The notes: a model not told the origin generated them from the sequence alone. Shown: positions 28,673 to 52,815, counted from the first letter of the stretch. The stretch is DNA of 64,000 bases from Spirochaetia bacterium (GCA_963675665.1 OY776510.1:896001-960000), one strand, 5' to 3'. Numbers and translations are program-made.

Positions 28673-29865
28673 CCCGTCCATTATTTTTTTACACCCTTAA
28701 GCACTTGATCGATATTAATGATGGTGTAAATCCGATAATACCGGCAGTTTCCTGATATTACCGGAACATTTTTCTATTTCTGCATCGGGGATCTTGTCTA
28801 TTCCTTGGTGCATTCTTTGATTATTGTAATAGCAAACAAATTCTGAGACGATTTTCTTGATCTGTTTCTCCGAGAATAGAAGGAAATGATCCAGAGCCTC
28901 TCGCCTGATTGTTCCTACCAGCCGTTCGACATGAGAATTCATATTCGGAGCAGCGGTACTGATGTTAACACCCTCAATATCATACCAGCTGTAATCAATG
29001 GAGGTAAATTGAGGTGTATTATCAAATATCAGTGTTTTGGGTTCATCGTTGTCATAAGTGAAATCTATTATTTGCTGTCGTACAAGCACCCTACTTGGAT
29101 TCTCTGTAAGACTCCATTTCACGATTTTCCTTGATTCCAGCTCTATTATTAGTAGAAGATATAGCCTCTTTCCCAAGAGTGTATCAATCGTCATAAAATC
29201 CATTGCGAATAAGGAATCCCAGTTCAGTTTGAGGAACTATTTCCAGGAACCATTCGGGTGAATCAACCCTTGCTTCCTGAAAGTGCTGATAATTCTGTTC
29301 ACAGTGGTGTAATGAATATCAATATTGATTTTCTTTAGTTCGTTAGCAATCTTTTTGCAACCCCAGAGATAGTTTTCCTGTTTCATCTCAAGAATCAGAT
29401 TTTTGATGTCCCTGGTAACAGGTCTTCTTCCGGGCGCTTTATGCTTGAAACTCCAGTAATTTTTAATGAACTTTCGTTGCCAACTCAGAAGAGTTTGAGG
29501 CTTTACTATTGTCAGATGATTCATTGCTCTTGCTGATCGAGCTATAATCAGTGCAAGACAGAACTTATCGCTTTTCCGGAAAAGCAGCTTCTTGTTCTTC
29601 AGATTGAGATGTCGCTTATAAATCTCATTTTCCTTTTTGAGGAGCAGCATTGTGAAGATGATATTCTTTCTTTTGCGGAATATGGTATTGAATATAGAAG
29701 CAAGTAGAGAGCATAAGAAGTTGAACATGATTTGAATATATCCAGGGTTTGTAATGAGGTAAATTTACCATATTAAAACAGGTTTCAGTGCCCGGAAAAA
29801 AAAATAACCTAAGAGGTTTTAATGTAGAAAAATTTCCATATTATCCTAAAAAGCCACAGGACGGG
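28673..29865 (-). mobile_element. IS-like DDE (rve integrase core) element, relic 1, near intact
   Basis: Ends CCCGTCC/GGACGGG; ORF 29728-28715 with HTH (WGCKKIANEL) and D-D-E (DFMT, FDN, VERL); in-frame TAG at 29237. Confidence 0.85.
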
Positions 29866-29880
29866 TGTTGAATATCGATG

Positions 29881-29990
29881 TAAGTAGAGAGTATAGGAAG
29901 CTGGACATGATTTTATTTTATCTAGGATTTGTAATGTGGTAAATTTACCAGATTAAAACATCTTTCTGTACCTGTATAAGAAAAACTAAC
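29881..29990 (-). repeat. Second copy of the element 5' end (180-bp offset direct repeat)
   Basis: Aligns to 29701-29810, including first codons MSSFLYSLL versus MFNFLCSLL. Confidence 0.85.
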
Positions 29991-30033
29991 CCACGACTTT
30001 TGGCGTTAATTTATTGTCAGTACGAGCATAAAA

Positions 30034-30363
30034 TTAATTCAATTCTTTGATTTTATGAATAATTTCAGGAATTGTTTTTGTTACTGTAATCCAGACTATT
30101 TCAGGATCAACAACGTCATATCCATGAATTAATCTATCTCTCATTCCTGCCATAGCTTTCCAGGGGATTTCTGGGTTAGTATCTCTCAGGCTATCGGGAA
30201 GACGTTTTGTGGCTTCTCCAATTACTTCAAGACAACGAATTACCGCAAATTGTGTTTTATCATCTGTCTTGAATGATTGTAAAGTCTGGTCTTTTATGAA
30301 ATCCTGAGAAAGTTCCATGGATTTCACAATATCATTCAAATAATCCGAGAATTCTTCTTTCAT
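30034..30363 (-). CDS. HepT-like HEPN toxin (DUF86)
   Basis: LEVIGEA, PEIPW..MAGMRDRLIHGY (RX4H plus Y). Confidence 0.92.
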   Translation of the reverse strand: MKEEFSDYLNDIVKSMELSQDFIKDQTLQSFKTDDKTQFAVIRCLEVIGEATKRLPDSLRDTNPEIPWKAMAGMRDRLIHGYDVVDPEIVWITVTKTIPEIIHKIKELN

Positions 30364-30656
30364 ATATACTGAACCTCTCGGAGAATGTGAGCTCCAATGG
30401 CAGGTTTTAAATCGGACTTAATTACTAAATCTACTTTTGTGTCCAATTCTTCAGAAAGCTGATTCTCTATCTCCAGCAACTCCAAGAGCCCTATAGTCGA
30501 AGGTCTTTTTATGTCTATCAGAATATCAATATCGCTTTTTGATGTTGCAGATCCTTTAATATAAGAACCGAAGATTCCGATCTCTAATATCCCATATTTT
30601 TCAAGTTGAGGTTTTTTGTGTGATAGATATGTTTTTATATCTGAAACATCTTTCAT
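30360..30656 (-). CDS. MntA-like minimal nucleotidyltransferase antitoxin
   Basis: IFGSY..G....SDIDILI, KVDLV; overlaps the HEPN gene start. Confidence 0.92.
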   Translation of the reverse strand: MKDVSDIKTYLSHKKPQLEKYGILEIGIFGSYIKGSATSKSDIDILIDIKRPSTIGLLELLEIENQLSEELDTKVDLVIKSDLKPAIGAHILREVQYI

Positions 30657-30859
30657 CTTTCTTTAACCTGCTATTAGAATAATATAGATCGGAAAAAAAA
30701 GGAATAACAAAAACCGCTATCGAATTTATCGACTATCGACGCCGATACCGACGCCTTTATTAGATAAACCCAGAAGGCTTATATGAAAAACTTACCACAT
30801 AAGCTCTTCTTATGCTGCTAAATACAGCACTATATGAACTACATAAGGACACAGACTGA

Positions 30860-30958
30860 GTTCAGGGTCTAGTGTCCGTGCGGACAACGTTAAACCCTAT
30901 TGTCTAACCCTAAAAGTTGCACCGAAGGTATGTGCTGGTTCGAGTCCTGTTCTGGGCA
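30860..30958 (+). pseudogene. 3' half of tRNA-Leu (attR-like) interrupted by a 46-bp insert
   Basis: GTTCAGGGTCTAGTGTCCGTGCGGA + insert + TGTGCTGGTTCGAGTCCTGTTCTGGGCA. Confidence 0.9.
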
Positions 30959-30963
30959 TCTTA

Positions 30964-30993
30964 ACTCCTTACAATGTAAGGAGTTGTTTTTTT
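30964..30993 (+). terminator. Terminator-like hairpin after the tRNA fragment
   Basis: AACTCCTTACA-a-TGTAAGGAGTT followed by a T run. Confidence 0.7.
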
Positions 30994-31163
30994 ATAAAAA
31001 CAGTGGTTTTTTAAAAGCTGGTTTTTATGCAAAAAAGTGCCTCAGAATAAAACTTCAGAATTCCCACTAATTGTATAGATGCAAATAATTAGGGGGAAAC
31101 ATGAAAAGTCTATATTGTTTAAAAAAACGAAAGCCTCAAACTGTCTGGTATTATAAGCTGCAG

Positions 31164-32259
31164 CACGTCCCGAAGTTTAATTCCGTCGATACAGATTTTA
31201 TGCACTGCTTTGAAATAGTGATGATGGATGCCTCCCAAAACAGATTCTTTCTGAATATTCCCGGTGGTTGAGATAATCTCTCCTGCCGGAATTCGTCCAA
31301 GTCCTTGATGCGGACGTTTTTCATTATAATAGGAAACATATTTCCTGATGATATTCCGAACTTGCTTCTCTGAAAAAAGCAAGAAGTGGTCCAAGGCCTC
31401 TCATCTGATACTGCCGATGACTCTTTTGGTATAGGCGATCATATTCGGAGCTGAGGTGCAGATATTAACTCACTTGATGTTGTACCAGCTGTATTCAATG
31501 GAGGTAAACTGAAGTGCATTATCTAAGATTAAAGTTTTATCCCCCGGAGTATCTTCTGTAAACAGCTCAATCCGTTTCTTGACAAACTCTCGACAAGGGT
31601 TCTCAGTTAAATCATACCGGATTATCCTTCTGGATTTTAGTTCAAGGATGATGAACAAGTAGAATCGTTTACTAAATAAAGTGTTAATCATGGCAAAGTC
31701 CATGCCGTATAAAGAATCCCAGTGGGTTTTCAGGAACCGAAGCCAGCTACCATTGGATTGAATCATTCCTTGCTTTCTAAAGGTCTGAATAATTTTATTT
31801 ACTGACGTATGATGAATATTGATGTTCAATTTCTTAAGCTCATCGGAGATTCTTCTGCATCCCCATAATGGATTGTCAGTTTTCATTTCCCGAATCAGCT
31901 TCTTGAGTTTGGCAGGTACTGGTTTCCACCCCCGTTTCTTGTGCTTAAAAGTCCATCGTTTTTTGATAAATCGGCTCTGCCATTTAAGGAGAGTTTCCGG
32001 TTTTACAATTGAAAGATGAGAAATAGCCCTTTTTGATAAAGATGCAATCAATGAGAGGCAGAAACGGTCGGTGTGATTAGAAGTTATCCTTTGCCCATGA
32101 AGGTTTAGATGCCTTTTCATTATCTCATTTTCTTTCTTAAGCAATAGTAAAGTGAAAATGACTTTAGGAGCTTTACAGTGAAGTTGAACATACTCTAATT
32201 ATCGGAAATATGGAAAAACACCCATTTATTCCATGGATGGAAAATATCTACACCACGCC
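31164..32259 (-). pseudogene. DDE (rve) element relic 2
   Basis: Homologous to relic 1; two in-frame TGA, catalytic Glu replaced (YTKRV), C-terminal frameshift. Confidence 0.85.
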
Positions 32260-32334
32260 CTTCGACACAGCACCGGTATTAAAAGATATTGCTGATGAGA
32301 TATGGGATAATATTAAACCTGAGCATTCAGCTGA

Positions 32335-33111
32335 TTAGACTGAAAATCTCCTGTTGAATACCTTAAGAGCCGCATAAAGTCCAGTTACTGCAAATCCCGC
32401 GCTGACGGCGAAACACAGCCAGGTAGGAATTGATGGAGCAGCGGCTGAAACGGTGCTTAACGACATCTGCCTAAGACCTGTTACCACATAGGTTGTGGGG
32501 TTTCCATATGCGCCGATTCTCATCCACACAGGCAGCGATGCCAGGGGGTATAGCGAGTTGCTCAGAAACAGCAGCGGCAGCTGCAGCAGAAATATCATCA
32601 TGTGGTAACCCTCTGAGCTGTCCGTCAGGGTTGCGACTGCCAGAGCGGCGCCGGTGAATCCTATTCCATAGCCGGTTATCAGAAGCAGCCCCCCGAGCCA
32701 TCCAACAGGGTTGGCGCTCATCTTCGCTCCCATCAGCAGCCCTACAAAGAGAATAATCAGTGACTGAATGAGTACTTTTGTTACTATGCTCAGGGCATGG
32801 CTGGACAGAATGCTCATTCTTGAAATTGGCGCCGCTTCATATTTTTTAACAATGCCGTTCAGGCGTTCACTCAGCCATGTAGATCCGCCTGCTATAGCCG
32901 CGCCGACTGCTGTGAGGGCAATAATACCGGGAATCATAAAGGTCATATATTCAGAGCCCGCCCCCGGAACTGATTTACCCATCATTCCTTTCATGCCGAC
33001 ACCGAAAAGAACCACCCACAAAACGGGTTGAATAAGCATCCCGAAAATTTCCTCAGGGTGTTTCAGCGTCTTATGCATGTATTTCCGCCATAAAATAATT
33101 GTTGCATTCAT
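32335..33111 (-). CDS. ABC-2 type exporter permease
   Basis: QPVLW..LFG, FMIPGI, YPL..LP.W, NP.TY. Confidence 0.9.
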   Translation of the reverse strand: MNATIILWRKYMHKTLKHPEEIFGMLIQPVLWVVLFGVGMKGMMGKSVPGAGSEYMTFMIPGIIALTAVGAAIAGGSTWLSERLNGIVKKYEAAPISRMSILSSHALSIVTKVLIQSLIILFVGLLMGAKMSANPVGWLGGLLLITGYGIGFTGAALAVATLTDSSEGYHMMIFLLQLPLLFLSNSLYPLASLPVWMRIGAYGNPTTYVVTGLRQMSLSTVSAAAPSIPTWLCFAVSAGFAVTGLYAALKVFNRRFSV

Positions 33112-33121
33112 AATTTATTCC

Positions 33122-34072
33122 TTATCTGTCCCGCAGCTGCCGGCCGGTGTGTTTAAGAAAGACATCTTCCAGAGTCGGTTTTGATACTGAGATATCTTCA
33201 ATTTTGTATCCGCATTCGAAAGCTTTTTTTACAACAAGCGCCAGTCTGCGGTTTCCTGAATCTACCCCTATCTGAACGATGTTGCCGGTTGAGTTAAAAC
33301 TCTCAACAAAAGAGAGCTCTTTGATGCTTCGTGAAAGATCCTCTATGTTTCCTGTCCCTGTTATTCTTATCCTGTCGGAGCCCATCTGTTCAATCAGTTC
33401 CGCCGGAGTTCCCTCAGTTATGATCTTTCCGTGGTCCATTATTCCCACTTTGTCGGCAACGGATTCCGCTTCGTCCATGTAATGGGTTGTAAGAAGAACA
33501 GTGATCCCGGTCGCTTTTCGGCGGGCTTTAATGTAGTCCCATATTTTAACCCGGTTCTGCGGATCCAGTCCCTGTGTCGGTTCGTCGAGGATCAGTATTT
33601 CAGGGCCGCTCAGCAGCCCGCGCGCCAGTTCCAGTCGTCTTTTCATTCCCCCGGAATAGGTTTTTGTGCTGCGATCCGCGGCTTCCTCAAGTTCAATGAT
33701 ATTCAGAAGCTCTTCAATCTTTTCCCGGCGCTCAGCTTTTTTCATCCCGTAGAGCTTTGCATGATAATCCAGGTTCTCACGGCCGGTGAAATCCGGATCC
33801 GTGACTATCTCCTGAAAGGTTATTCCTATTTTACGGCGGACAAGACCCGGATCTTTCAAAATATCATAACCGGCGACATTTGCTGTACCTGAACTGGGAC
33901 GCAGCAGGGTAGAGAGCATCGAGATCGTTGTAGTTTTACCTGCTCCGTTAGGCCCAAGCAGGGCAAAGACGGAATCTGCCGGTATTGATAGGCTGATACC
34001 GTCTACCGCCAGTGTTTCCTCTCCGAATCGCCTCGTCAGGTTTTTTAAAACTACTGATGGTTCCCGCTTCAC
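33122..34072 (-). CDS. DrrA-like ABC exporter ATPase
   Basis: GPNGAGKT, YSGGMKRR, LDEPT.GLDP, TTHYMDEA; GTG start overlaps the upstream stop. Confidence 0.92.
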   Translation of the reverse strand: MKREPSVVLKNLTRRFGEETLAVDGISLSIPADSVFALLGPNGAGKTTTISMLSTLLRPSSGTANVAGYDILKDPGLVRRKIGITFQEIVTDPDFTGRENLDYHAKLYGMKKAERREKIEELLNIIELEEAADRSTKTYSGGMKRRLELARGLLSGPEILILDEPTQGLDPQNRVKIWDYIKARRKATGITVLLTTHYMDEAESVADKVGIMDHGKIITEGTPAELIEQMGSDRIRITGTGNIEDLSRSIKELSFVESFNSTGNIVQIGVDSGNRRLALVVKKAFECGYKIEDISVSKPTLEDVFLKHTGRQLRDR

Positions 34073-35088
34073 TTTGAAGCTCCAACTGCGGTGACTTTGT
34101 CTATCCACGGCAGAACAATTTCAAGGAACTGCTCCGGTGATTCTTCATGAGGCAGATGACCTGTTTCAGGTATGAAGTGCAGCGTAGAATCAGGCAGCAT
34201 ATCATTCAGCTTCCGGGAATCTTCTGCCGGAACAACCTTGTCTTCTTCACCTGACACAATAAGAGCAGGAATATTTATTTCAGGAATCCGGCTCTCGAAA
34301 TCGAATGAAACCTCTGCCCATGCCTTCAGATACTGCCAGAGCGCGAAATCCCAGTTACGCACTTCCGTCATTATCATGGAGTCTTCCATCCTTTTGTCTG
34401 AGAAAACAGAAGGTTCGGCATAGCAGTTTTTGTAGAATGCTGTGCCTGAACCCATCGAGCGGGCAAACAGCGGACCTGCGTTGTTCATCTGCGGGCTGCC
34501 CACCAGCCAGCCGGGCATTGATTCGCTGACGAATACTGCGGGATCAACAAGTATCAGTCCGGCTACACGGTCTTTAAATTCAACAGCTGTCCGGACAGCC
34601 AGGGTTCCTCCGTAAGAAGAGCCTACAAGATATACCTGTTCAAGCTTCAGGGTATCAAGCAGGGCAATAAGCTGTGTCACGGCCGCCTCCTGCGTGTAGG
34701 GGTTTGCTTTGCTCCAGTCCTCTTCCGTCAGTTTTTCACTCAGGCCGTAGGGCGCCTGATCATAGGCGATGGTGCGTCCTTTAGCGGCAAATGCATCAAA
34801 AACCCTGTCCCAGCTGAAGAGATTGTACATTGAACCATGAAGCAGAATAAAAACAGGTTCGCCGGGATCTGAACTGCCCTTATCCATATAATGGATTTCT
34901 ATTCCGTCTGTACCTTCAAAAGGTACATTGATGAAAAGACTGTCAGATTTTTTGACATCTTCGGCAGCGGCCAGGCCCTCTATCGGATCAGGTGAAATTA
35001 ATAGAGGAATTATTGCTGCAGCTGCAACAATAAAAACAAAAATACCTGCTATGGTTAGCAATATTCTCTTAATAAGCTTCTTTTTCAT
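34069..35088 (-). CDS. Membrane-anchored alpha/beta hydrolase
   Basis: LLHG, GSSYGG nucleophile elbow, GEEDKVVP, GHLPHEE. Confidence 0.9.
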   Translation of the reverse strand: MKKKLIKRILLTIAGIFVFIVAAAAIIPLLISPDPIEGLAAAEDVKKSDSLFINVPFEGTDGIEIHYMDKGSSDPGEPVFILLHGSMYNLFSWDRVFDAFAAKGRTIAYDQAPYGLSEKLTEEDWSKANPYTQEAAVTQLIALLDTLKLEQVYLVGSSYGGTLAVRTAVEFKDRVAGLILVDPAVFVSESMPGWLVGSPQMNNAGPLFARSMGSGTAFYKNCYAEPSVFSDKRMEDSMIMTEVRNWDFALWQYLKAWAEVSFDFESRIPEINIPALIVSGEEDKVVPAEDSRKLNDMLPDSTLHFIPETGHLPHEESPEQFLEIVLPWIDKVTAVGASK

Positions 35089-35196
35089 ACCAATAATACT
35101 CCTATAACTGCTTTATAGCATCAAATGTAATATTAAATAATGCTTTTGTCAACTTAATAGCTTGTAAATTATGCTAAATAGCACTATTATTGTTTT

Positions 35197-35790
35197 ATGA
35201 GTGATCAAGCGCTTCAAATAGCAAAAGAACTGCTGACTTATCTGGAGAGTTTCCTGAAGCAGAAAGAAAATCAAAACGCTGAGGCAGAAAACCAGATTTA
35301 TGAATTCTGTCGGTGGATGGTAAATTCCTCTGAAAAGAAAGAAACAGGTGAAGAGCATGCCGGAACTGATATGACGGACATACTTATAGGCATGTATCTG
35401 GCAAACCTGGCGAATCTTCTGAAAAAAGAGCAGAATCGTTTTGTTTCAGAGACACCTTTCTCGTCCTTCATGGATTTTCAATTTCTTTTTCTTCTGAATG
35501 AGCACAGTGAAATGACAAAGTCGCAGCTTATTGCTGCAAACAATATGGAGATGTCATCAGGTATTGAAGTAATTAATCGTTTGAAGCGTTCCGGATGGAT
35601 ACATGAGAAGCAGAATCCTGACGATCGCCGTTCCAAACTGATCTATGTGACTGAGCAAGGAAAAGCAATTCTTGCCCAATACAGGGACAGCGGAATGGAA
35701 ATCTATAAATCCTACTCGGCAGATCTTGGTGAAGCTGAAAGATCAAATGTTTTGAACTCTCTTGAGCTTATAAGCAAACTAAACAGCTGA
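35197..35790 (+). CDS. MarR-family regulator
   Basis: INRL...GWI....PDDRRSKLI.VT..G; divergent from the hydrolase/ABC operon. Confidence 0.85.
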   Translation: MSDQALQIAKELLTYLESFLKQKENQNAEAENQIYEFCRWMVNSSEKKETGEEHAGTDMTDILIGMYLANLANLLKKEQNRFVSETPFSSFMDFQFLFLLNEHSEMTKSQLIAANNMEMSSGIEVINRLKRSGWIHEKQNPDDRRSKLIYVTEQGKAILAQYRDSGMEIYKSYSADLGEAERSNVLNSLELISKLNS

Positions 35791-35839
35791 TAGATATCCT
35801 ATATTTTAAATAAGGAGTATTTACGCGATCTCCTGGAAA

Positions 35840-36219: not shown

Positions 36220-36307
36220 TCTTTTACTTTGTTGTTGCTGATGTAATTATTTTAAGATTGCTTTTTATACATATAAATAATACTATATGTATTAGGAGTG
36301 CCTAACC

Positions 36308-40958: not shown

Positions 40959-40967
40959 GAGTCGACC

Positions 40968-42347: not shown

Positions 42348-42355
42348 TGAGGTAG

Positions 42356-42478
42356 TTGCCTAACTCAGATTCCCTTTTTTGTAACACTGATAGCAACACC
42401 TGTTTCTAATTCATCTGAAACAGATTCAATAACAGAATAAATTATACCTGCTAATTTATCAGCCTTTAATCCCTCCAT
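42356..42478 (-). pseudogene. Possible C-terminal fragment of a DUF5615/PIN-like protein
   Basis: EGLKADKLAGII...DELETGVAISVTKKGI*VRQL recalls DUF5615 C-termini. Confidence 0.35.
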
Positions 42479-42545
42479 ACGAATTCGAATATCAGGTACT
42501 TGAAAGGTAGCACAATGATGGTAGAATAGTCAGCAGGAGAATAAA

Positions 42546-43433: not shown

Positions 43434-43449
43434 TAAACAGGACGCGTCA

Positions 43450-43750
43450 GCGGTATTTCCTCGATACATTCTTTGAGAATTATAATATTCCATATATTCT
43501 GAGATGATTTTCCTGCCCTGTTTCCCGGAAAACAGCAGAAAAAGATCAAAAGCTTAATGTTTGGTGCATGTGAGCAGAGATTTACTCCCTTAATTCCATA
43601 ATCAGTATTAATCTATTGAAGTGAGTAGAGAGTAGAAGAAGCTGAATATGATTTGATTATATCCATGATTTTGATTGTAGTAAATTTTCCATATTAGAGT
43701 GGCTCAAAGTTCCGGATGAAAAAACTAACACACGGTATTTCTATGTTAGC
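43450..43750 (-). pseudogene. DDE element relic 4 (multiply deleted) with 5'-end repeat
   Basis: 43450-43590 aligns to 28795-28975; 43622-43735 aligns to 29881-29990. Confidence 0.75.
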
Positions 43751-43757
43751 TTTTTGT

Positions 43758-43901
43758 AGGCTATCGGGAAGACGTTTTATGGCCGGATTACAACAGATAG
43801 TGTTTTATCATTTACCCTGAATGATTGGAAAGTCTGATCCGTAATAAAATCTTAAGAAAATTCCATGGATTTTTCAGTATAATTTAAATAATCCGGGAAT
43901 T
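43758..43901 (-). pseudogene. Decayed copy of the HEPN toxin gene
   Basis: AGGCTATCGGGAAGACGTTTT is identical to 30188-30208 and similarity continues to about 30352 with a deletion. Confidence 0.8.
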
Positions 43902-44067
43902 GGCATTGCCGCCTGTTCTGACTGTATTGTACTCCAAATTTTACTTACAAAGCGGCACCGAAGGTATCGCCAATTGAAATGGGCGCTCTGAGCTTGAATG
44001 TGGAAAAGTTGCTACATTAAAAAAAATCACATGATCTACTTTTTCTAAGTAAGCGGTAATTCTTCCC

Positions 44068-45600: not shown

Positions 45601-45638
45601 AAATAAATTTTAACATGATTAAATTCCGGTGTGAAGCA

Positions 45639-45983
45639 TTAAACGCGGGAATATGATAATTCTTTATGCGCGTTGAAGAAATCTATCCCGTCCAGCAGCA
45701 TCTTAAGTTCCTCGAATCTGATTTCTCTGGCCTCTTCTTCTGTTTCAGGCCAGGGAAACTTGTTCTTCTCCAACCGTTTCTGCCATAGGCAGAATCCGTT
45801 TCGATCCCAGTAGACAATTTTCAAAAGTTTTTGTTGGCCGTTACAGAACAGAAACAAACTTTTCGAAAACGGGTCATTATGCATTACGTTCTGAATCTGA
45901 AGGCTCAATCCGTTTACCCCTTTTCTTAAATCCGTTTTGCCGGGCCGTATAAAATATCGGTAATCTGTATAATCGAAAATCAT
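45639..45983 (-). CDS. tnpB: IS66 accessory TnpB
   Basis: TDLRKGVNGL, LFLFCN, WDRNGFCLWQKRLEK..F.WP. Confidence 0.93.
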   Translation of the reverse strand: MIFDYTDYRYFIRPGKTDLRKGVNGLSLQIQNVMHNDPFSKSLFLFCNGQQKLLKIVYWDRNGFCLWQKRLEKNKFPWPETEEEAREIRFEELKMLLDGIDFFNAHKELSYSRV

Positions 45984-46279
45984 TCAAGTTCTCCGATTAT
46001 TCTCAGAACTGATTTCAGCTCGGCTTCATCAAACCCGGCAGTTATTGATATTAAAAACTTTTTGGACTTCAATACAATTGGTGCAGCTGCTACAGATTGA
46101 ACGGGTTTTATTTCTATTATCTCTGAGCTCTTTGACAGGTTCATACCGAACCGTTTTCTGTGCTTATAGAAAGTATTTGGATGAATTTCAATCTCTTTGC
46201 AAAACTCCGGAATTGATTTTCCGCTCATCTGTTGTTGTTCAAATATTTCTTCCCAGTTTTTGATTATCTTCTTCATTTC
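45980..46279 (-). CDS. tnpA: IS66 TnpA-like HTH protein
   Basis: W......SGKSIPEFC...I...TFY. Confidence 0.8.
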   Translation of the reverse strand, partial: EMKKIIKNWEEIFEQQQMSGKSIPEFCKEIEIHPNTFYKHRKRFGMNLSKSSEIIEIKPVQSVAAAPIVLKSKKFLISITAGFDEAELKSVLRIIGELE

Positions 46280-46500
46280 ATTCCTCCGTGATTCTTTTCC
46301 CGGAGGATAGTACATTTTCAGATTTTCGCAAGAAGGAAAGAATTACCGCTTACTTTTCTAAGTATTATATAAACCGAATCACGGAGTGATGTAACTCATT
46401 TGTTACCGTTACATGACTCGTTCATTACCACTTTCATATTCTTGGACTCTGGTTTTTCCGGCATATTTTACTAATCACTGGTATAGATAAAGGAGAAACT

Positions 46501-47895
46501 ATGTTTAAAAAGATTGCCATTTTTTTGCTGTTTATTTCGGCAATTACCTCAACTCTCTGTGCGTTGGAACAAATTGATGAAACGCAGTTTGACAGCTTTG
46601 TCCGTCGGATCATAGAGAAGTATAAAATCCCCGGAGTTTCCATTGCCGTATTTAATGCAAATGAAATCCTTTACACTTTCGGAGATGGAAAAACAATCGG
46701 GAAGACAGCGATTGACAGTGACACTGTCTTCTACCTCGGTTCGACGAGTAAGACTCTTACAGCCCTGGCTATTCTGAAATTGTATGAACAAGGAAAAATC
46801 GATTTGGATGTTCCCTATAACCGGTATGTGCCCGAATTCACATCGCCATATGCCGAACAGCTTACGATTCGCCATCTCCTTCATCATCGGAGTGGTCTTG
46901 CCAGCAGGGAATTACTGTTGGGAGAAAATTCTTTTAAAGAGGAATTGAAAAGCATCAATCAAAAATGTGTTTCCACGATACCTCCCGGAGAAAGATATAT
47001 CTATTTCAACGGAAACTACAGATTACTAGGCCTCTTGGCAGAGGAAGTTTCGGGAATGGAATTTGAAGATTATATGAGACGGGAAATATTATCTCCCCTT
47101 GAACTTGAAAACATATACGCCGGACTGCCTTCTGTTAAGAACTCGGCACAAGGTCATGGCCGTTTCTTTGGAATTCCATTTTGCAGGAATCAGGTCTATA
47201 GACCGGGAGCTTTAACTTCCGGCTATTTCAGCGCCAGTACCGGAGACCTGGGGCGTCTTCTCATTAATATCCTGCAATCATATGAAGGGAACGGAATATT
47301 CAGGCACGATACCATAGCCGAATCATGGACCGTTATGGACAATGAGGATGAATCCTACGCCATGGGGTGGCTGAAAATACGGGATGGCGATTCGTTCTTT
47401 CTGGTGCACGGAGGGGCCCTCGAAAATTTTCAGAGCTTTCTTTATTTGAATCCGGACAAACAATTCGGCTTTGTTTTGCTGATAAATCAGGGAGGTCTTT
47501 TGTCCACATACGGAGGATTCTCTTCTCTGAGAGCCGGACTGATCAATATGCTTTCCGGAGTCGCAACCGAAGAGAAAGTATTAAACCCAATCTTCTATAT
47601 TGTATACGGCATTTTTGTTTTAATCTTTTTTCTTGAGCTCTTTTTGTTTTTTCGCTTATTGAAAAAGAAAGAGTCGTCACTTGCAGGCATAATTATAGAG
47701 AGCGCACTCTCCCTGTTCTTTCTTTTAGGCTTTATCCCCTTGATGAACAGGATTATGGGAGGCGGAGCTAACTGGAGGTTTATCGGAAATATATTACCGG
47801 AATTGTTTGTTCTTCTCTGGATTATTATAATATTCGGATTGGCAAGGGCGCTTATAAAAATCGGGTATCTGTTTCATTTTCCCAAAGTGAGATGA
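46501..47895 (+). CDS. Serine hydrolase (beta-lactamase/PBP family) with C-terminal TM helices
   Basis: STSK (SxxK), LLHHRSG, YFN, HGG. Confidence 0.9.
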   Translation: MFKKIAIFLLFISAITSTLCALEQIDETQFDSFVRRIIEKYKIPGVSIAVFNANEILYTFGDGKTIGKTAIDSDTVFYLGSTSKTLTALAILKLYEQGKIDLDVPYNRYVPEFTSPYAEQLTIRHLLHHRSGLASRELLLGENSFKEELKSINQKCVSTIPPGERYIYFNGNYRLLGLLAEEVSGMEFEDYMRREILSPLELENIYAGLPSVKNSAQGHGRFFGIPFCRNQVYRPGALTSGYFSASTGDLGRLLINILQSYEGNGIFRHDTIAESWTVMDNEDESYAMGWLKIRDGDSFFLVHGGALENFQSFLYLNPDKQFGFVLLINQGGLLSTYGGFSSLRAGLINMLSGVATEEKVLNPIFYIVYGIFVLIFFLELFLFFRLLKKKESSLAGIIIESALSLFFLLGFIPLMNRIMGGGANWRFIGNILPELFVLLWIIIIFGLARALIKIGYLFHFPKVR

Positions 47896-48826
47896 AATCT
47901 CTCCGGGTTTCTACTCCCGTTTTTTGGAAAATACTGTGGATATGATTTTTTACGGTACCGTATGAAATATTGAGATGCTGGCTTATCTCTTTATTGGAAA
48001 GACCACTTTGAACCATAAGGGATATCTCTTCTTCCCGGTGCGATAATTGGAATTGCTTTAACAAGGCTTTTCTTTTTCTTGTCAGAAGACCGGAGATGTC
48101 CCTGTTGTGGTTTGCCTTGAAAAGATAGTAGAAGGAAACAATTGATATTATAAGAAAGATCGGAGGATAGTAAATCAACTCAAGAGGGTTTGGGAGCTGA
48201 TCATAGTCAAAGAAATTCGGCGTGATTTCTTCAAAGCGAGCAGGATATCTCGAAATGATATTAATCAGTGTGAAGATAATATATAAACCTGATATAATGC
48301 TGCAAACCAGATATTCGTTTGCCGGTATGGAAGAAAAATTCCTTTTCAGAGTTCTCCAGCCCCATATAACAAGACCTGCAGCCGGCAATGCCAGCGACGA
48401 TACGAAAAGAATGACTGAATCGATCAATGAAAAGAGGTTCGGGTTAACAGGTAGAATGAGATTTACGGCAAAGGCCAAAAAAGGAGAAAATGCCGTCAGT
48501 ATTAAGAAGAACGAGAGCAAATGCGAAATCTTTTGTTTTAATAACTTGTAGACAAGAATAAATGCACAGACGCCGAAAAGTGATTCCGGAATAAATCTTA
48601 ACAGGAATATCAGTCTGATGTAGGGTTTGATAGTCTCAGGGCGGAAGTTTAATATCAAATACTGACGGATTAATGCCATCGCCCCGTCATGAAATAGAAG
48701 AAATAATAATATAGAGTAATACAGCAGAGAAGATGAACGATTTTTTCCGTATTGAAAAAATGTGATCGAAATTACTCCCCAAAGCAAAGTTAAAGCGATT
48801 CCGTTCACCAAAAGTACTATATGCAT
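47852..48826 (-). CDS. Membrane-bound LuxR-type regulator
   Basis: About 7 TM helices then LSHREEEI...GLSNKEI...TVKNH. Confidence 0.85.
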   Translation of the reverse strand: MHIVLLVNGIALTLLWGVISITFFQYGKNRSSSLLYYSILLFLLFHDGAMALIRQYLILNFRPETIKPYIRLIFLLRFIPESLFGVCAFILVYKLLKQKISHLLSFFLILTAFSPFLAFAVNLILPVNPNLFSLIDSVILFVSSLALPAAGLVIWGWRTLKRNFSSIPANEYLVCSIISGLYIIFTLINIISRYPARFEEITPNFFDYDQLPNPLELIYYPPIFLIISIVSFYYLFKANHNRDISGLLTRKRKALLKQFQLSHREEEISLMVQSGLSNKEISQHLNISYGTVKNHIHSIFQKTGVETRRDFISLWENETDTRFL

Positions 48827-48895
48827 TGTAAAATATTAGATTATCAATTTCCTGTTGTCAATTAAGGCAATAAAGGAAAAGGAAAACAAAGAATA

Positions 48896-48942
48896 CAGTG
48901 CATTGGCATTTTTCACTTTTAAGCACTTGAACGGTATTTATG
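48896..48942 (-). pseudogene. Tiny 3'-end relic of the DDE element
   Basis: TAAGCACTTGAACGGTA encodes YRSSA* and aligns to 28674-28720. Confidence 0.55.
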
Positions 48943-49081: not shown

Positions 49082-49104
49082 ACATGTCTTAATATATTAG
49101 AAGT

Positions 49105-49842
49105 ATGAACCTATATAAAGTTTTGGCTTCCGAATATAAAGAAATCTTTCCTTCCTCAAATGAAAAAGTTGAATTTGTCGAATCATATCTTGATAAAGCC
49201 GAATCCCAGCAAATACTGGACATCGGATGCGCCAGTGGAGAGTTGGTCTGTCAATTATCTTCATCAAACAGAGACGTTACAGGAATCGACCTTGATGCAC
49301 TTATGATAGAGGAGGCCATGGCTTTCTTGCCTTCGGTTCCTGCAACCAGGGTACAATTCCATCAGGCTGATATGCTCCGGTTTTTGTCAGATTCAGGTGC
49401 CTGTCGGTTTGACCTGATAAGCTGCCTGGGCAATACAGTTGTTTATCTTGATGGGGAGACTGAATTGAAGAAGTTTCTCTTATTGGTAAAAAATGTGCTG
49501 AAGCAGCATGGAACGATGATCATACAAATATTGAATTACAGTAATCCGGAGATAGTTCCAGGTTTTACTTTTCCGACAGTTGAAACAGGCAGGATTGAAT
49601 TCAACAGGGAGTATGTGGCAATGGATGATTCATCAAAATTGGGTTTTAAGACTTCCATTAAAGATAAATCTACAGGTGAGACTGATACGGATTTACATCG
49701 ACACTATCCGTTTTTAAGCAGTAGAATTGTAGAGATAGCAAAGGATGCGGGATTTAAAGATGCACATATTTACGGCGGTTATGACGGGAAAGAAGCTGAT
49801 GTTTCAAATTTCTTTCATCTGATAGTTCTGAAGACGGGTTAA
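49105..49842 (+). CDS. Class I SAM-dependent methyltransferase
   Basis: ILDIGCASG, GIDLD, CLGNT, IQILNY. Confidence 0.9.
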   Translation: MNLYKVLASEYKEIFPSSNEKVEFVESYLDKAESQQILDIGCASGELVCQLSSSNRDVTGIDLDALMIEEAMAFLPSVPATRVQFHQADMLRFLSDSGACRFDLISCLGNTVVYLDGETELKKFLLLVKNVLKQHGTMIIQILNYSNPEIVPGFTFPTVETGRIEFNREYVAMDDSSKLGFKTSIKDKSTGETDTDLHRHYPFLSSRIVEIAKDAGFKDAHIYGGYDGKEADVSNFFHLIVLKTG

Positions 49843-49853
49843 GCAGTTAAGCG

Positions 49854-51044
49854 ATGGGTGAAGCAATAGGAAATAATAAAATCAAAGAGGAGAAACTGAG
49901 GGAGATTGTCCGGAACCTCAATGAAGGAACGGATATTCGTAAGGTGAAAAAGCAGTTTGATAAGCTGATCCGCGACATAAGCCCCGAAGAAATTGCGAAC
50001 GTAGAGCAGTCTCTGATAAATGAAGGGGTGCCGGTAGAGCATGTTCAAAAGCTTTGTGATATTCATGTGCAGGTTTTCGATGATGCTCTCAAAAAACAGG
50101 GAAAATCCAGAGTTCTGCCGGGTCATCCGGTACACACTTACCGGTTAGAGAATAAGGAACTGAAGAAAAGGATACGCGGTCTCAAACAATCTATAAAATC
50201 AGATTTCCTGGTAAAATTGAAAGATGCAAAAATGATTGAACTCCATTATGTTAGAAAAGAGAATCAGCTCTTTCCATTCCTTGAAACTGCAGGTTTTACG
50301 GGGCCCTCGAAGGTCATGTGGGGAAAGCATGATGAGATTCGTGCATTATTCAGGAAGATAGAAGAGGATTACAATAAAGGTGATCTTAACGCTGTTAAGA
50401 AACAGACCGATGTTCTGATAAAAGCTCTGAAAAATATGGTCTTCATGGAAGAGAGAATCCTTTTTCCCGCCTCAATAAGAAAGCTTCCTCCTCAGGCCTG
50501 GTCTTCTATCAGAAAGGGTGAATCCGCAATAGGGTACTGCTGGATTGAACCGGGGAACCTCCGGGATGCAAACATTGTTGGGGGAGATGGTTCGGAAGCG
50601 GCGCCGGCCGGCCCCTCCCAAAGTACGCAATCCGGTGATGAAAAGATTTCTCTTGATACAGGGGCTTTGTCTGCAACGCAGATAAACCTGATGCTGAAAA
50701 ATCTCCCGTTTGATATGACCTATGTGGATGAAAACGACAAAGTTGTTTATTATTCGGAAGGGAAAGAACGAATCTTTCCCAGAAGCCCGGGAATAATCGG
50801 ACGGGAAGTAGCCAACTGTCATCCTCCGAAGAGTGTTCACATAGTTGAAAAGATTGTTGAAGCCCTAAAAAAAGGTGAAAAAGAGCAGGCGGAGTTCTGG
50901 ATACAGATGAACGGGATGTTTATCCATATCAGGTATTTCCCCATTTTCGATGAACAGGGCAAATACAGAGGCATTATTGAAGTCAGCCAGGAAGTCTCGG
51001 GAATTCGTTCCCTTGAGGGCGAACATCGCCTGCTGGAGTGGTAA
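49854..51044 (+). CDS. DUF438 / hemerythrin-like / PAS protein
   Basis: KLCDIH, GHPVHT...EN, HYVRKENQLFP, VMWGKHDEIR, NCHPPKS. Confidence 0.9.
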   Translation: MGEAIGNNKIKEEKLREIVRNLNEGTDIRKVKKQFDKLIRDISPEEIANVEQSLINEGVPVEHVQKLCDIHVQVFDDALKKQGKSRVLPGHPVHTYRLENKELKKRIRGLKQSIKSDFLVKLKDAKMIELHYVRKENQLFPFLETAGFTGPSKVMWGKHDEIRALFRKIEEDYNKGDLNAVKKQTDVLIKALKNMVFMEERILFPASIRKLPPQAWSSIRKGESAIGYCWIEPGNLRDANIVGGDGSEAAPAGPSQSTQSGDEKISLDTGALSATQINLMLKNLPFDMTYVDENDKVVYYSEGKERIFPRSPGIIGREVANCHPPKSVHIVEKIVEALKKGEKEQAEFWIQMNGMFIHIRYFPIFDEQGKYRGIIEVSQEVSGIRSLEGEHRLLEW

Positions 51045-51769
51045 TGGATCCATATATTACGCTGTCTTTGGTCGATTATATCCAGTTGCTCCATGGCGGG
51101 CCGGTGGCAAAATCTCTTTTTATCTACTTTGAAGCTGAATTAAAGAACTGTTCTCCGGCAGAGGTGAATACAGCTATTGAGAATCTGATGACCAGATATA
51201 AAGATGTTGATGAAATTGAGAATACGGTTGCAAGGTTCATCAGGTCTGTTACTCCGGGGTTGGAAAAACACAGAAAACCGGAATACGCGCAAGATAGCAT
51301 TTTTAGCATTCTTGATAAGGAAAATCAGATTATCGATACAATTCTGAAGAATCTTAAAAAGGTATATGTAAAAACATTACCTGAACTCAAGGCAGAAAAT
51401 AGAAACGCAAAAATGTATTTACAGAATGAAATAGGAAAAATCGAAGCTATAAAAAAGCATTACCTGAAACTTCAATACGGCGTTTTTTCCGCATTGGAAT
51501 CAGCGGGTGCGCCAACCCGATGTATTCAGCTGATGTGGCATCTGCAGGATTCTGTCTGGCCGAAATTAAAAGACTGCCGGGATCTGCTGTCCGGGGAAGT
51601 TTGGGATTTCAACCTGTTTAACAAAACTTACGGTCAGATGTTTTTCCTGCTGGCTTCTCTGGTCTTTAGAGAGGATAAGATACTCTTCCCTGTAGCATCT
51701 CAATATTTGCCCGAAGGCGTTCAGATGAAGTTGATGCTTGACGCAGAGACATATGGAATTTTAGCATAG
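51038..51769 (+). CDS. Divergent DUF438/hemerythrin-like paralog
   Basis: ENQ, HYLK....F..LE, LMWHLQD, REDKILFP. Confidence 0.7.
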   Translation: MVMDPYITLSLVDYIQLLHGGPVAKSLFIYFEAELKNCSPAEVNTAIENLMTRYKDVDEIENTVARFIRSVTPGLEKHRKPEYAQDSIFSILDKENQIIDTILKNLKKVYVKTLPELKAENRNAKMYLQNEIGKIEAIKKHYLKLQYGVFSALESAGAPTRCIQLMWHLQDSVWPKLKDCRDLLSGEVWDFNLFNKTYGQMFFLLASLVFREDKILFPVASQYLPEGVQMKLMLDAETYGILA

Positions 51770-51785
51770 TGTGATAGGTATCACA
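51770..51785. promoter_or_regulatory. Crp/Fnr-family binding site
   Basis: Perfect TGTGA-N6-TCACA, 46 bp upstream of the 4Fe-4S gene. Confidence 0.65.
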
Positions 51786-51831
51786 GCCAAGAAACGGGAA
51801 ATAGCTTAACCTGTTTATTCAGGAGGCTGAT

Positions 51832-52461
51832 ATGAAAGAGAAAACGCGTAATAAAATTAGATGGCTAATTGAAATCCTGGCACTTGCTATTTTTATTGGA
51901 TTAACGATTAACCACAAGCTTCAGCTATGGTTTGTTATTTTCTTATTGGGAGTCATCATCTCCATATTCGCCGGCAGATATTACTGCGGCTGGATATGTC
52001 CAATGAACACACTTTTTCGTCCTATCCAGTGGGTTTATAAAAAGTTAAAGATCAAAAGATTCAAATCACCGAAAGTTTTATCTAATCATTGGGTAAGATA
52101 CATTATTCTTATCCTTTTTCTCGCCGCAATGGTAATGATCAGAAGATTCCACATCAAGATAAATCTTTTGCTGTATATCACAATGCTTTCGGTTGTAGTT
52201 ACCTTGTTTTTTGAGGAAGCCTTCTGGCATCGCCATATATGTCCATTTGGAACTATTCTAAGCATTACTTCAGGGAAAGCGAGGATTTCCATGGAAATTG
52301 AAGAATCAGGTTGTATCAGCTGCGGAGCTTGTCAGAAAAAATGTCCTTCAGGTTCCATCATCACCAGGGAAGATGGAAAGCGCTGCAATCAGAAGAATGA
52401 ATGTTTATTATGTTATCAGTGTATTGAAGCATGTCCCGCAAAGGTATGCGAAATAGGATAA
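51832..52461 (+). CDS. Membrane 4Fe-4S binding protein (NapH/MauN-like)
   Basis: GRYYCGWICP, ICPFG, two CxxCxxCxxxCP motifs. Confidence 0.9.
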   Translation: MKEKTRNKIRWLIEILALAIFIGLTINHKLQLWFVIFLLGVIISIFAGRYYCGWICPMNTLFRPIQWVYKKLKIKRFKSPKVLSNHWVRYIILILFLAAMVMIRRFHIKINLLLYITMLSVVVTLFFEEAFWHRHICPFGTILSITSGKARISMEIEESGCISCGACQKKCPSGSIITREDGKRCNQKNECLLCYQCIEACPAKVCEIG

Positions 52462-52483
52462 ACGGTGGAAGAAATTATAAAGA

Positions 52484-52815
52484 TTACATCTGTAGAAAAA
52501 GCTTATACTGCCGTTTAATATTTCTACAAAAGCATTTTTGTTTGGTGCATATGAGCAGATATTTACTCCAGGCTCCAGTTGGTTGAATCTTGCCCTGCTT
52601 CCTGAATGTCTGAATAATCTTGTTAACTGTAGTTGGATGGATTTCTATTCCGATTTTTTTTAAATCATCAACGTTAAAAGAATGTCTTTCCGGTCTGAAA
52701 AGATGATTTAATAACAGATTCAAGAAGTGCAGACAGGGAGCTAAACATTTTTCATTTTCGACAGATTATAATATGGAAAATTTTCCACATCAGTTGATAA
52801 AACTATAGGACAGGG
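52484..52815 (-). pseudogene. DDE element relic 5 (multiply deleted)
   Basis: LKKIGIEIHPTTVNKIIQTFRKQGKIQPTGAW matches relics 1 and 2; end AAAACTATAGGACAGG. Confidence 0.8.

Follow-up and report, generated by a model that had tools for sequence, protein, structure and literature searches.

The window analysed here, a stretch of 64,000 nucleotides from a Spirochaetia bacterium (genome G000, 5.15 Mb), carries beside a tRNA-Leu(CAG) gene an array of gene modules between which lie degenerate copies of a single 1.13-kb insertion sequence (IS), all in the same orientation (Table 1). We see roughly an even chance that this array arose by accretion of tyrosine-integrase elements at the tRNA, with a locus-restricted and oriented IS lodging close to the tRNA, being displaced outward and decaying, and with deletions pruning the locus. 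The IS resembles a lodger that seeks out its site more than a machine for capturing genes. Repeated oriented accretion beside tRNA-Leu, as proposed in a preliminary description of this DNA, is borne out by the co-oriented, clustered relics, by module edges at relic ends, and by recurrence in relatives. The accompanying proposal that the DDE enzyme is itself the capture machine is not upheld, since the surviving junctions are of the tyrosine type and two of the cargo modules are IS-free in relatives.

Table 1. Features of the tRNA-Leu(CAG) array, with positions counted from the first nucleotide of the window.
Feature	Position	Strand	Description	Basis
tRNA-Leu(CAG)	28113..28198	+	array anchor	ARAGORN, Rfam
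162-bp unit	28199..28380	+	terminator and ~80 nt, ending in tRNA 3' repeat	repeat D10, sequence reading
Type II arm	28381..28557	+	tRNA-proximal arm of small integrase-less element	arm alignment and profile
Relic 1	28673-29865	-	full-length IS, one TAG stop; profile match body 28673-29805	E 5.7e-260
Relic 2	29866-29997	-	left end alone: inverted repeat, palindrome, ~15 codons; abuts left tip of relic 1; profile match 29866-29995	
HepT/MntA toxin-antitoxin	30034..30656	-	type II unit cargo	Pfam HepT-like 3.9e-28, NTP_transf_2 6.1e-14
Type II unit, distal end	30712..30858	+	conserved	distal-end profile E 2.1e-41
Displaced tRNA-Leu 3' fragment	30851..30958	+	63 nt, split	repeats D18 and D20
Type I island	30959..31166	+	tRNA-proximal arm and tyrosine integrase start; cut flush by relic 3	
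Relic 3	31164-32259	-	full-length IS, different sublineage, stops present; profile match 31166-32258	
ABC module	32335..35790		ABC-2 permease, ABC ATPase, alpha/beta hydrolase, MarR	Pfam
Relic 4	35840-36219 (blocks 35840-35935 and 35929-36218)	-	both ends present, interior deleted	
RND efflux operon	36308..43433	+	pump, fusion protein, outer-membrane factor, one ORF without Pfam match	Pfam
Relic 5	43457-43735 (blocks 43457-43624 and 43615-43735)	-	left end and C-terminal block	
Older junction scar	43731..44022		HepT gene fragment 43731-43901; outer type II arm with palindrome 43968-44022	repeats D3, D9, D11
IS66	44049..46353	-	intact, three ORFs, unrelated to relics	Pfam, inverted repeat I10, flank reading
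Serine hydrolase module	46501..48826		beta-lactamase-family serine hydrolase, LuxR-type regulator	Pfam
Relic 6	48896-48942 (match 48898-48937)	-	possible 40-nt right-end remnant; weak	
Methyltransferase module	49105..52461	+	methyltransferase, DUF438-hemerythrin-PAS protein, one ORF, 4Fe-4S protein	Pfam
Relic 7	52502-52811	-	one copy in three blocks; left end and palindrome retained	
TetR/MMPL module	52898..56281		TetR regulator, MMPL transporter; past last relic	Pfam

A DNA profile of the IS, based on 19 intact copies from other genomes, was used to scan the window, where it matched six of the seven pieces that had been assigned to one rve-type element, every match lying on the minus strand. 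The seventh piece, relic 6, is weak: this 47-bp piece gave no match in the window-wide scan, was seen as a 55-nt repeat 75% identical to the right end of relic 1 (repeat D8), and reached a profile match of 4.3 bits (E 5.5e-4) with the search restricted to 800 nt. The mutual divergence that had been noted among the relics is evident from relics 1 and 3, which share only 60% identity in DNA and 56% in protein, the latter copy carrying two TGA stops. The profile likewise recovered the reported loss of an interior between retained ends in relic 4, where the deletion leaves an in-frame ORF of 93 aa. The left end of relic 1 is a mosaic with a second left tip at 29817-29865, and such left ends are stacked both in the window and in the relative G003. 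Target duplications, already described as not evident, were found neither at the copies of the window nor at 13 confidently bounded copies whose flanks were inspected by eye.

The transposase, which has 343 aa where intact in relatives, comprises the domains HTH_32, rve and rve_3. In the intact relative L002:976-2004 the Pfam scores are 34.0 bits for rve (cut-off 32.6) and 45 bits for rve_3 (cut-off 26.5), so that a catalytic core above cut-off and a conserved D, D, E triad place the protein in the rve superfamily. D177 and D236 are invariant in nine sequences, and E268 and E277, both invariant as well, are the candidates for the catalytic E; a fold search returned DDE transposases and integrases exclusively, at low TM-scores of ~0.3. 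The IS measures 1.12-1.15 kb, ends in (CC)CGTG...CACG(GG), and has 20-bp inverted repeats placed tightly around the gene. Public sources name the protein just "integrase core domain-containing protein," "putative transposase" or "InsO family." Its best NCBIfam matches are IS481 and IS3, and it resembles both in its HTH and rve core, its D, D, E triad and the ~1.1-kb length of the IS, but it scores far under the curated cut-offs of both. For IS481 the score is 91.6 bits against a cut-off of 224 (NF033577); members of that family, as catalogued in ISfinder, have TGT-type termini and make a short target duplication, neither of which was found here, the duplication being absent at the 13 bounded copies. 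For IS3 it is 86.7 bits against 160 (NF033516); IS3 elements have two ORFs joined by a frameshift, while in nine relatives the transposase is read from one intact ORF of 342-350 aa without frameshift. Membership in IS1202 was rejected on length, transposase size and ends. Judged by its sequence, the IS would represent an unclassified rve family.

The evidence for tyrosine-type accretion comes from the tRNA-proximal part of the array. The tRNA-Leu(CAG) gene is the sole tRNA in the window (ARAGORN, Rfam), and three displaced tRNA-Leu 3' fragments, direct repeats derived from the 3' portion of the target tRNA gene as in accretion arrays, lie at 28361-28380 and within 30851-30958. The first, 20 nt long, repeats the 3' end of the tRNA, starting in the T loop, and closes the 162-bp unit; a similar unit with an 18-nt repeat boundary is present at tRNA-Leu(GAG) in locus L045. 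The adjoining type II unit (28381-30858) is small, lacks an integrase, has tRNA repeats at its borders and contains HepT/MntA. Its arm, the single match of the type II arm profile in G000 (E 1.1e-39), contains a hairpin, a terminator, three GGCGTCA-type repeats and a 24-bp palindrome (19.4 bits). In the type I island the arm DNA is 85% identical to that of the relative G010 as far as the IS end, and an integrase stump (31101-31166) preserves the first 22 codons, 19 of 22 residues being identical to the G010 integrase, which bears Pfam Phage_integrase. Among partial tRNA copies at fetched loci, 13 of 17 start at tRNA positions 30-37, three start at 54-58, and two internal pieces were seen; these starts match the symmetric tRNA sublocations described for tyrosine integrases in one study (10.1101/2020.11.02.365908). 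The surviving junctions thus read as classic tyrosine-integrase scars, with tRNA 3' fragments starting in the anticodon or T loop and an integrase stump.

This evidence does not support the earlier idea of accretion without involvement of a tyrosine recombinase, and the report that no tyrosine integrase is present is valid for intact genes alone because the stump and the tRNA fragments remain. An intact integrase beside a regenerated tRNA end occurs in G010, and no intact tyrosine recombinase was found in the window, in the 535-kb array contig of G003 (C11) or in the 709-kb array contig of G008 (C7), an observation that speaks against our preferred reading. With a home-made 8-seed profile, a tyrosine recombinase was detected within 6 kb of the IS at one of 76 loci. 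Att scars do not bound every array unit: no tRNA fragment was found in the window beyond 32 kb, and most module borders consist of an IS relic alone, since the sole scar past 32 kb, a degraded one, is that at 43.7-44.0 kb, whose palindrome scores 26.5 bits. These relic-only borders likewise weigh against the preferred reading.

According to this preferred reading, tyrosine-integrase elements would enter the anticodon-loop or T-loop part of tRNA-Leu(CAG), each integration restoring the tRNA and shifting older DNA outward together with a displaced 3' fragment. The 1.13-kb IS would then insert at most a few hundred bases from the tRNA or fragment, in an element arm or the start of an integrase gene, nearly always oriented so that the transposase gene points its 3' end at the tRNA, and it would also enter, or settle next to, the left ends of copies already in place. 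The likely beacon is the 24-bp palindrome, which occurs in the 5' leader of the IS and in element arms. Further accretions would displace older IS copies outward, where internal deletions would erode them, and deletions flush with IS ends would strip att sites and integrases, leaving operons parted by relics. The relics with their restricted location and shared orientation, the tRNA fragments and integrase stump, the recurrence in relatives and the divergence among copies are observations; the order of events, the role of the palindrome and the way in which the flush deletions arose are what we infer. Elements that accrete in tandem and leave remnants lacking an integrase are documented (PMC5704250).

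In related marine spirochaetes, same-facing IS arrays are found at the same tRNA with different gene content, which supports the oriented accretion proposed in the preliminary description. Within arrays the copies are 60-77% identical, and partners at 75-77% are found in other genomes, which suggests that array copies are independent arrivals. Six spirochaete genomes compared pairwise contained no copy pairs above 85% identity, and across 76 loci the closest same-genome spirochaete pair reaches 92%. In G000 and G008 full-length copies lie closest to the tRNA and fragments alone farther out; the age gradient is not clean, because in G003 the tRNA-nearest copy is broken and three farther copies are intact, an order that runs against the preferred reading. 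G010, which lacks the IS, retains the intact order of tRNA, integrase, 35-kb island and 61-nt tRNA repeat.

Coherent modules are indeed separated by the relics, as had been described, with relics intergenic and module edges 16-76 nt from relic ends, and this geometry fits an alternative that we consider unlikely although it retains some weight, namely that the IS builds the array. The IS or a miniature derivative would insert together with adjacent genes beside a resident copy in the same orientation, by targeted transposition or recombination between IS ends, comparable to IS26 translocatable units or compound transposons, so that the relics would punctuate a DDE capture platform. The homology of the RND operon with G010, which begins ~16 nt from the tip of relic 4, fits such a process, as do the missing target duplications, the stacked and mosaic left ends, the relic-only state of most borders and the scarcity of tyrosine recombinase genes near the IS. 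Further support comes from the distant relative G044, in which cassettes of one to three genes are set apart by 26 miniatures, each joining an IS left end to a small conserved ORF, and by ~15 IS pieces. These form three co-oriented clusters, and the 140 kb of fetched DNA contained neither a tRNA nor a tRNA fragment; such arrays without tRNA also count against the preferred reading. The G044 repeat looks protein-coding, with 27, 35 and 73 substitutions by codon position, and no hairpin is conserved in it (5 predicted pairs, -1.16 kcal/mol).

Against construction by the IS stand the modules themselves, which apparently do not need it. The RND operon is shared with G009 and with G010 (77% in DNA; pump protein 90%), IS being absent nearby; in G010 the operon too lies downstream of tRNA-Leu, and the four genes of the ABC module occur in G008 (71% DNA identity) at an unrelated site without IS, arm or tRNA. 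Neighbouring copies differ too much, unlike the identical copies of IS26 arrays; the clear junctions of the window are tyrosine-type tRNA scars; no circular or joined forms were seen among the assembled contigs searched; and the placement of relics between operons is expected from survival alone, because long-lived IS insertions must be intergenic. The RND and ABC modules diverge from their relatives about as much as core genes do, which fits old residents and imported cargo equally; this core-like divergence is a further point against the preferred reading. For the serine hydrolase, no homologue at E <= 1e-30 was found in 10 other family genomes.

Mapping of genomic copies yielded the clustering and shared orientation that the preliminary description implied, rather than copies scattered in random orientation, the outcome it had named as refuting. 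Beyond the window, G000 contains two fragments (4456051-4456225 and 4469782-4469863), both on the plus strand and adjoining a tRNA-Leu fragment on the minus strand, so that all fragments fall at two tRNA-Leu-fragment sites; a profile search of G000 found no intact IS copy. The IS stands tail-to-tail with a full tRNA-Leu(CAG) in six of seven stretches (window, G001, G003, G005, G008 and L036; exception G009), and 10 of 11 multi-piece stretches share one strand. In close relatives (at least 55% identity) a tRNA or fragment is found on the opposite strand no more than 650 nt downstream at 7 of 25 loci with enough flank, on the same strand at none of them, and within 750 nt upstream at 0 of 30; across the 76 loci, 12 of 14 tRNA genes lie downstream of the IS on the opposite strand. 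Seven of the eight palindromes of at least 22 bits in G000 fall in the array locus of the window, and one IS end in L031 lies inside a palindrome; with the stacked left ends of the window and G003, this fits insertion close to resident left ends and palindromes. The IS lies anywhere from 24 to ~500 nt from the tRNA, and its targets showed no consensus; together with the absent target duplication, these observations weigh against the preferred reading.

It is improbable that no special targeting is involved, the array then being a tolerant, flexible region near the origin with orientation set by selection or by replication bias. By cumulative GC skew the window lies ~60-120 kb from an origin near 0.84 Mb, the transposase gene is on the lagging strand at both G000 loci, module GC contents of 0.40-0.46 are close to the 0.433 of the genome, and two modules have ordinary counterparts in relatives. 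Tolerance, however, cannot explain confinement to two sites while the IS66, which separates relic 5 from the serine hydrolase module and is flanked by an 8-bp target duplication (44041-44048 and 46354-46361), occupies six spread places on both strands with 100% identical copies; it also leaves unexplained the different sublineages at the same tRNA in several genera and the asymmetry of 7/25 versus 0/30 around the gene.

The layout of the type II unit recurs at tRNA-Leu(CAG) (window and G003), tRNA-Met (L040, 2.3 kb; L031) and a tRNA-Leu(GAG)-like fragment (L046), with differing toxin-antitoxin pairs and no recombinase gene inside besides the rve gene. That shared architecture, the single divergent rve gene per unit without near-identical copies in the compared arrays, and palindromes like that of the IS leader in both arms (at the palindrome position of the left-end profile in 6/6 distal ends and 4/7 arms; any match in 191/2600 shuffled control sequences) would suit an rve protein acting as integrase of small tRNA-specific units, each made of distal end, toxin-antitoxin pair, rve gene, optional cargo, arm and a replacement tRNA 3' segment, yet this is very improbable given that the gene is tightly framed by its own inverted repeats, that a 1198-bp family IS has moved alone in Gemmatimonadota (two copies 97% identical, one away from any tRNA), that unit ends are unlike IS ends, that repeats starting in the anticodon or T loop mark tyrosine recombinases, and that tRNA copies of 18-63 nt are unlike the target duplications of DDE enzymes, which are short and fixed in length.

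The array was earlier put forward as an undescribed system, which leaves known analogues out of account: tandem accretion with cis-mobilizable elements (CIMEs), dif-hunting IS and IS26 arrays. Short co-oriented cassettes parted by a repeated element, most evident in G044, recall integrons, which are defined by an integron integrase, attI and attC hairpins; here integrase and attI are absent, the G044 repeat lacks a conserved hairpin, and an integron was rejected with Phage_integrase absent from the 29 window ORFs scanned and from the span of the window in G000. IS26 arrays interleave direct IS copies with cargo without target duplications (PMC4196232), as here, but those copies are of the IS6 family and identical to one another, whereas the present ones represent another family and are restricted to a single chromosomal locus; a translocatable-unit array of the IS26 type was discarded on the 60% identity of relics 1 and 3 and the non-IS6 family. 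As described in PMC10132070, dif/pdif hunters of the IS1202 family (ISAjo2 type) are oriented rve-type IS beside a tyrosine-recombinase site in module arrays, a likeness that extends to single orientation among gene modules; they measure 1.5 kb, encode a 441-457-aa transposase, have TGT/ACA ends, make a 5-bp duplication and insert exactly 5 bp from the XerC site, differing from the shorter IS studied here with its CCCGTG...CACGGG-type ends, unseen duplication and looser spacing. Integrative elements that accrete in tandem at tRNA/tmRNA genes and leave cis-mobilizable remnants are described in PMC5704250 and PMC4383910, with the ssrA islands as a further comparison (PMC3146451). The present arrays differ from CIMEs in having one IS family in a single orientation at nearly every junction, att scars lost at most junctions and the intact cis integrase gone in G000, G003 C11 and G008 C7; they resemble them in the regenerated target gene, in displaced 3' fragments that mark borders, in an att-flanked integrase-less remnant (the type II unit of the window) and in co-oriented arrays with strain-variable cargo.

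The relics downstream of tRNA-Leu(CAG), which at 28113-28198 is the sole tRNA of the window, are pieces of a single rve-type transposase that has decayed and lies on the minus strand, as translation of the pieces first described revealed. A DNA profile derived from 19 intact copies of the insertion sequence (IS), all from other genomes, recovered R1 to R5 and R7. The relic array reported in the preliminary description was largely right; its 47-bp piece is weak as an IS relic. The same profile found no intact copy in the source genome (G000; 5.15 Mb in a single contig, the window being C1:896001-960000), and the only other fragments there, at 4456051-4456225 and 4469782-4469863, lie on the strand opposite to the window relics. 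R4 retains an open frame of 93 aa (35874-36155, minus), in which about 75 N-terminal transposase residues are in-frame with the last 18 or so; this frame may have survived by chance or may specify a small regulatory protein.

Relics of the insertion sequence and tRNA-derived features of the array, in window coordinates
Feature	Position	Strand	Detection	Remark
R1	28673-29805	minus	DNA profile	additional left tip 29817-29865
R2	29866-29995	minus	DNA profile	only left end
R3	31166-32258	minus	DNA profile	
R4	35840-36218	minus	DNA profile	interior gone, both ends retained
R5	43457-43735	minus	DNA profile	
R7	52502-52811	minus	DNA profile	three blocks
tRNA-end repeat, 20 nt	28361-28380			closes 162-bp unit
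tRNA-Leu fragment, 63 nt, split by 45 nt	30851-30958			followed by arm and first 22 integrase codons

The locus also carries scars of tyrosine integrases that the preliminary description had overlooked, namely tRNA 3' fragments and an integrase stump. In this stump 19 of 22 residues are identical to the integrase of the relative G010 (85% identity at the DNA level), and the homology ends exactly at the end of R3. G010, which lacks the IS, preserves the intact order of tRNA, integrase, 35-kb island and 61-nt repeat. Of 17 incomplete tRNA copies that the fetched loci contain, 13 begin at tRNA positions 30-37 and three at 54-58, the anticodon-loop and T-loop sublocations of tyrosine integrases (10.1101/2020.11.02.365908). 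A further junction of this kind, degraded, is found at 43731-44022. Rfam detected nothing but the tRNA in the window and in 20 kb of the more distant relative G044. The 45-nt insert splitting the displaced tRNA-Leu fragment (30885-30929) has a counterpart at a second site of the genome (4456265-4456360), where the tRNA copy is likewise split, and a portion of it is found again next to copies of the arm, the tRNA-proximal end of an integrated element, at ~28480 and ~43955. Moreover, a unit of ~165 bp with its own terminator, bordered by an 18-20-nt tRNA-end repeat, occurs at tRNA-Leu(CAG) (28199-28380) and at tRNA-Leu(GAG) of a same-genus relative (L045); two readings fit this unit, a miniature integrative remnant and a mobile mini-element.

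Between these two tRNA fragments lies a 2.5-kb integrase-less (type II) unit. Its arm contains GGCGTCA repeats and a palindrome and is followed by R1, R2, HepT/MntA and a distal end that is conserved. Units built alike, with differing toxin-antitoxin pairs, are present at tRNA-Met (L040, L031) and by a tRNA-Leu(GAG)-like fragment (L046). Strong palindromes are restricted to these loci, seven of the eight in the source genome being located within the array of the window, and newer IS copies adjoin or break older left ends and palindromes. The idea that arms and distal ends are complete IS left-end relics was dropped, as the left-end profile matches the palindrome only, with 3-5 bits compared with a 99.9th percentile of 3.7 bits in the shuffled control. 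At the second genomic site (L026, 4446001-4470000) the two IS fragments, on the plus strand, adjoin a tRNA-Leu fragment that is likewise split and the type II distal end known from the window, both on the minus strand. This region also holds an intact tyrosine integrase (4450038-4451189), an excisionase-like HTH_17 gene, an AbiEi gene and an IS110; no full tRNA was found within 60 kb, and the region is probably a piece of the array relocated by rearrangement.

In intact relatives the IS is 1.12-1.15 kb long and has one ORF, for a transposase of 343 aa in the reference copy and of 342-350 aa over the nine copies aligned. This protein has HTH_32, rve and rve_3 domains, and its catalytic acidic residues are conserved. 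The inverted repeats of the IS, ~20 bp long, are of the type (CC)CGTG...CACG(GG), the right one overlapping the stop codon, and a leader of ~90 nt contains a 24-bp palindrome. Family assignment was based on NCBIfam and Pfam: the NCBIfam scores remained below the cut-offs for IS481 (91.6 versus 224) and IS3 (86.7 versus 160), and public names for the transposase are generic only. The IS1202 family differs in size and ends (PMC10132070). Classification by fold was uninformative, with Foldseek returning generic DDE enzymes (Mos1, TnsB, IstA, retroviral integrases) at TM-scores of ~0.3 for a structure model with a mean pLDDT of 63.9. In the flanks of the bounded copies inspected we saw neither a target duplication nor a common target motif. 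IS66, of which the genome contains six copies that are 100% identical and distributed over both strands, differs from the relic IS in the window in having an 8-bp duplication and in this spread over both strands. The intact IS66 copy of the window (44049-46353, three ORFs) sits with its 8-bp target duplication inside an older junction's scar; in addition, the genome holds a 77-78% relative in seven copies.

The transposase is present in 16 of 41 related genomes, including eight of ten in the family, and the named relatives of the fetched loci are marine Spirochaetota. In G003 and G008 every copy lies on one strand, within 31 and 132 kb of tRNA-Leu(CAG), respectively, and the G003 copy in locus L002 (contig C11) is intact; the tail-to-tail arrangement of IS and tRNA recurs in G001, G005 and L036, with G009 as the exception. 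Twelve of the 14 tRNA genes in 76 loci from species-representative genomes are positioned downstream of the transposase gene on the opposite strand. Within the close clade, a tRNA or tRNA fragment follows within 650 nt downstream on the opposite strand in seven of 25 loci, with none of the 25 having one on the same strand downstream and none of 30 having one upstream; in more distant clades the counts were 0 of 20 and 0 of 14, with a tRNA library that favors close relatives. IS copies inside one array share 60-77% identity, have partners of 75-77% in other genomes and include no near-identical pair in the arrays compared; separate arrivals rather than local copying therefore filled the arrays.

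Upstream of the tRNA, synteny holds across these genomes; downstream it never does, and G003, G008 and G010 show none on the far side of the array. The two upstream ORFs at 25269-27472, encoding a DUF2201 metallopeptidase-like and a 358-aa protein without Pfam match (GC 0.489), are absent from the fetched regions of relatives; a chemoreceptor gene takes their place in G003, G008 and G010, so the upstream side has also been subject to exchange.

Two of the modules between the relics have IS-free counterparts in relatives, and the modules have GC contents of 0.40-0.46, close to that of the genome (0.433); they are therefore ordinary accessory operons, which occur independently of the IS. The RND operon shares 77% DNA identity (90% protein identity for the pump) with that of G010, where it is likewise situated downstream of tRNA-Leu without IS; the homology with G010 starts ~16 nt from the tip of R4 in the window, and the operon is also present in G009. 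A 71% identical ABC/hydrolase/MarR cluster resides in G008 at an ordinary site that has neither IS nor arm nor tRNA in its vicinity. An empty-site comparison for the ABC module failed, the genomes being too rearranged. The location of relics between operons is partly expected from the survival of insertions alone.

The accretion proposed in the preliminary description is borne out by the tRNA-fragment scars and by recurrence at tRNA-Leu in relatives. Accretion at tRNA genes is known from an earlier report (PMC5704250). Here, most likely, it was joined by an IS that homes, in a single orientation, on the tRNA-proximal region and on the left ends of resident copies. Older copies would shift outward and lose their interiors, and deletions flush with IS ends may have taken out integrases and att sites; beside an IS end in G008, the 10 kb of the island nearest the integrase are missing altogether. 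The order of these events, the role of the palindromes and the origin of the deletions are what we infer. The combination of tRNA accretion with a site-hunting IS would add a variant to already known kinds.

A bolder reading, which we consider unlikely, is that Spirochaetota possess a DDE-based platform for gene accretion, whose recombination punctuation would be supplied by this unclassified family of rve IS together with its miniature derivatives. Incoming units, equipped with a left-end mini-element or a divergent transposase gene of their own, would join one-way beside resident ends, giving cassette arrays that are tRNA-anchored (G000, G003, G008) or free-standing (G044). In favor of this reading, IS relics stand alone at most borders, few integrase genes occur near these IS, and G044 contains three co-oriented clusters without tRNA fragments, in which 26 miniature derivatives and ~15 IS pieces lie between cassettes of one to three genes. 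These derivatives join the IS left end to a small ORF that looks constrained, with 27, 35 and 73 substitutions at the first, second and third codon positions, respectively; the derivatives have no attC-like fold, the repeat showing no conserved hairpin. A DDE enzyme acting as the capture machine is unproven, and a site-hunting lodger is at present the likelier reading. The G044 arrays (L103-L109; C25:2033000-2091000, C31:1658000-1722000, C31:2093000-2113000) carry co-oriented derivatives of 270-290 bp, placed 8-40 nt behind stop codons in the stretches read, each with a conserved ORF of ~57 aa and several with an IRR-like far end; the cassette genes include GNAT, radical SAM, hydrolase, PPIase, ankyrin, amidase+TetR, CHASE4 and MFS.

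Few site-seeking IS are known to follow other mobile elements to their attachment sites, and the Acinetobacter dif hunters are the closest described case. A one-locus, one-way IS family with repeated arrival of different sublineages and cut integrase genes would exemplify natural orientation- and region-specific DDE targeting and would suggest a route to island fixation through loss of the integrase and pruning of att sites. Were the IS family itself to assemble the arrays, it would represent a new enzymatic type of gene-capture system. In addition, relics and tRNA fragments serve as markers of the history of a marine-spirochaete hotspot that holds genes for efflux, transport, defence and toxin-antitoxin systems.

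Contigs of four of six public sequencing runs, compared with positions 27001-47000 of the window, contained no same-strain joint at a relic or tRNA-fragment border; the arm-to-arm and tRNA-to-arm joints in public contigs are no evidence of excision because they stem from diverged relatives or have short sides. A further sample of the same study (run X6) yielded a 565-nt contig that links 32518 to 39841 without mismatches; it skips 7.3 kb, with neither side at a relic border, and a separate X6 contig spans 37710-38781 inside the skipped part; the joint may represent a deletion variant or a mixed population. Finally, Gemmatimonadales (L094, L098, L101, L102) have an IS of 1.2 kb that belongs to the same wider family at 30-33% protein identity and has ends of the type CGTCCTGT...; it sits in tRNA-Ile and tRNA-Arg islands with tRNA repeats of 44-152 nt and toxin-antitoxin cargo (Fic, PIN, HipA, AbiE); its gene points away from the tRNA, and two copies are 97% identical.
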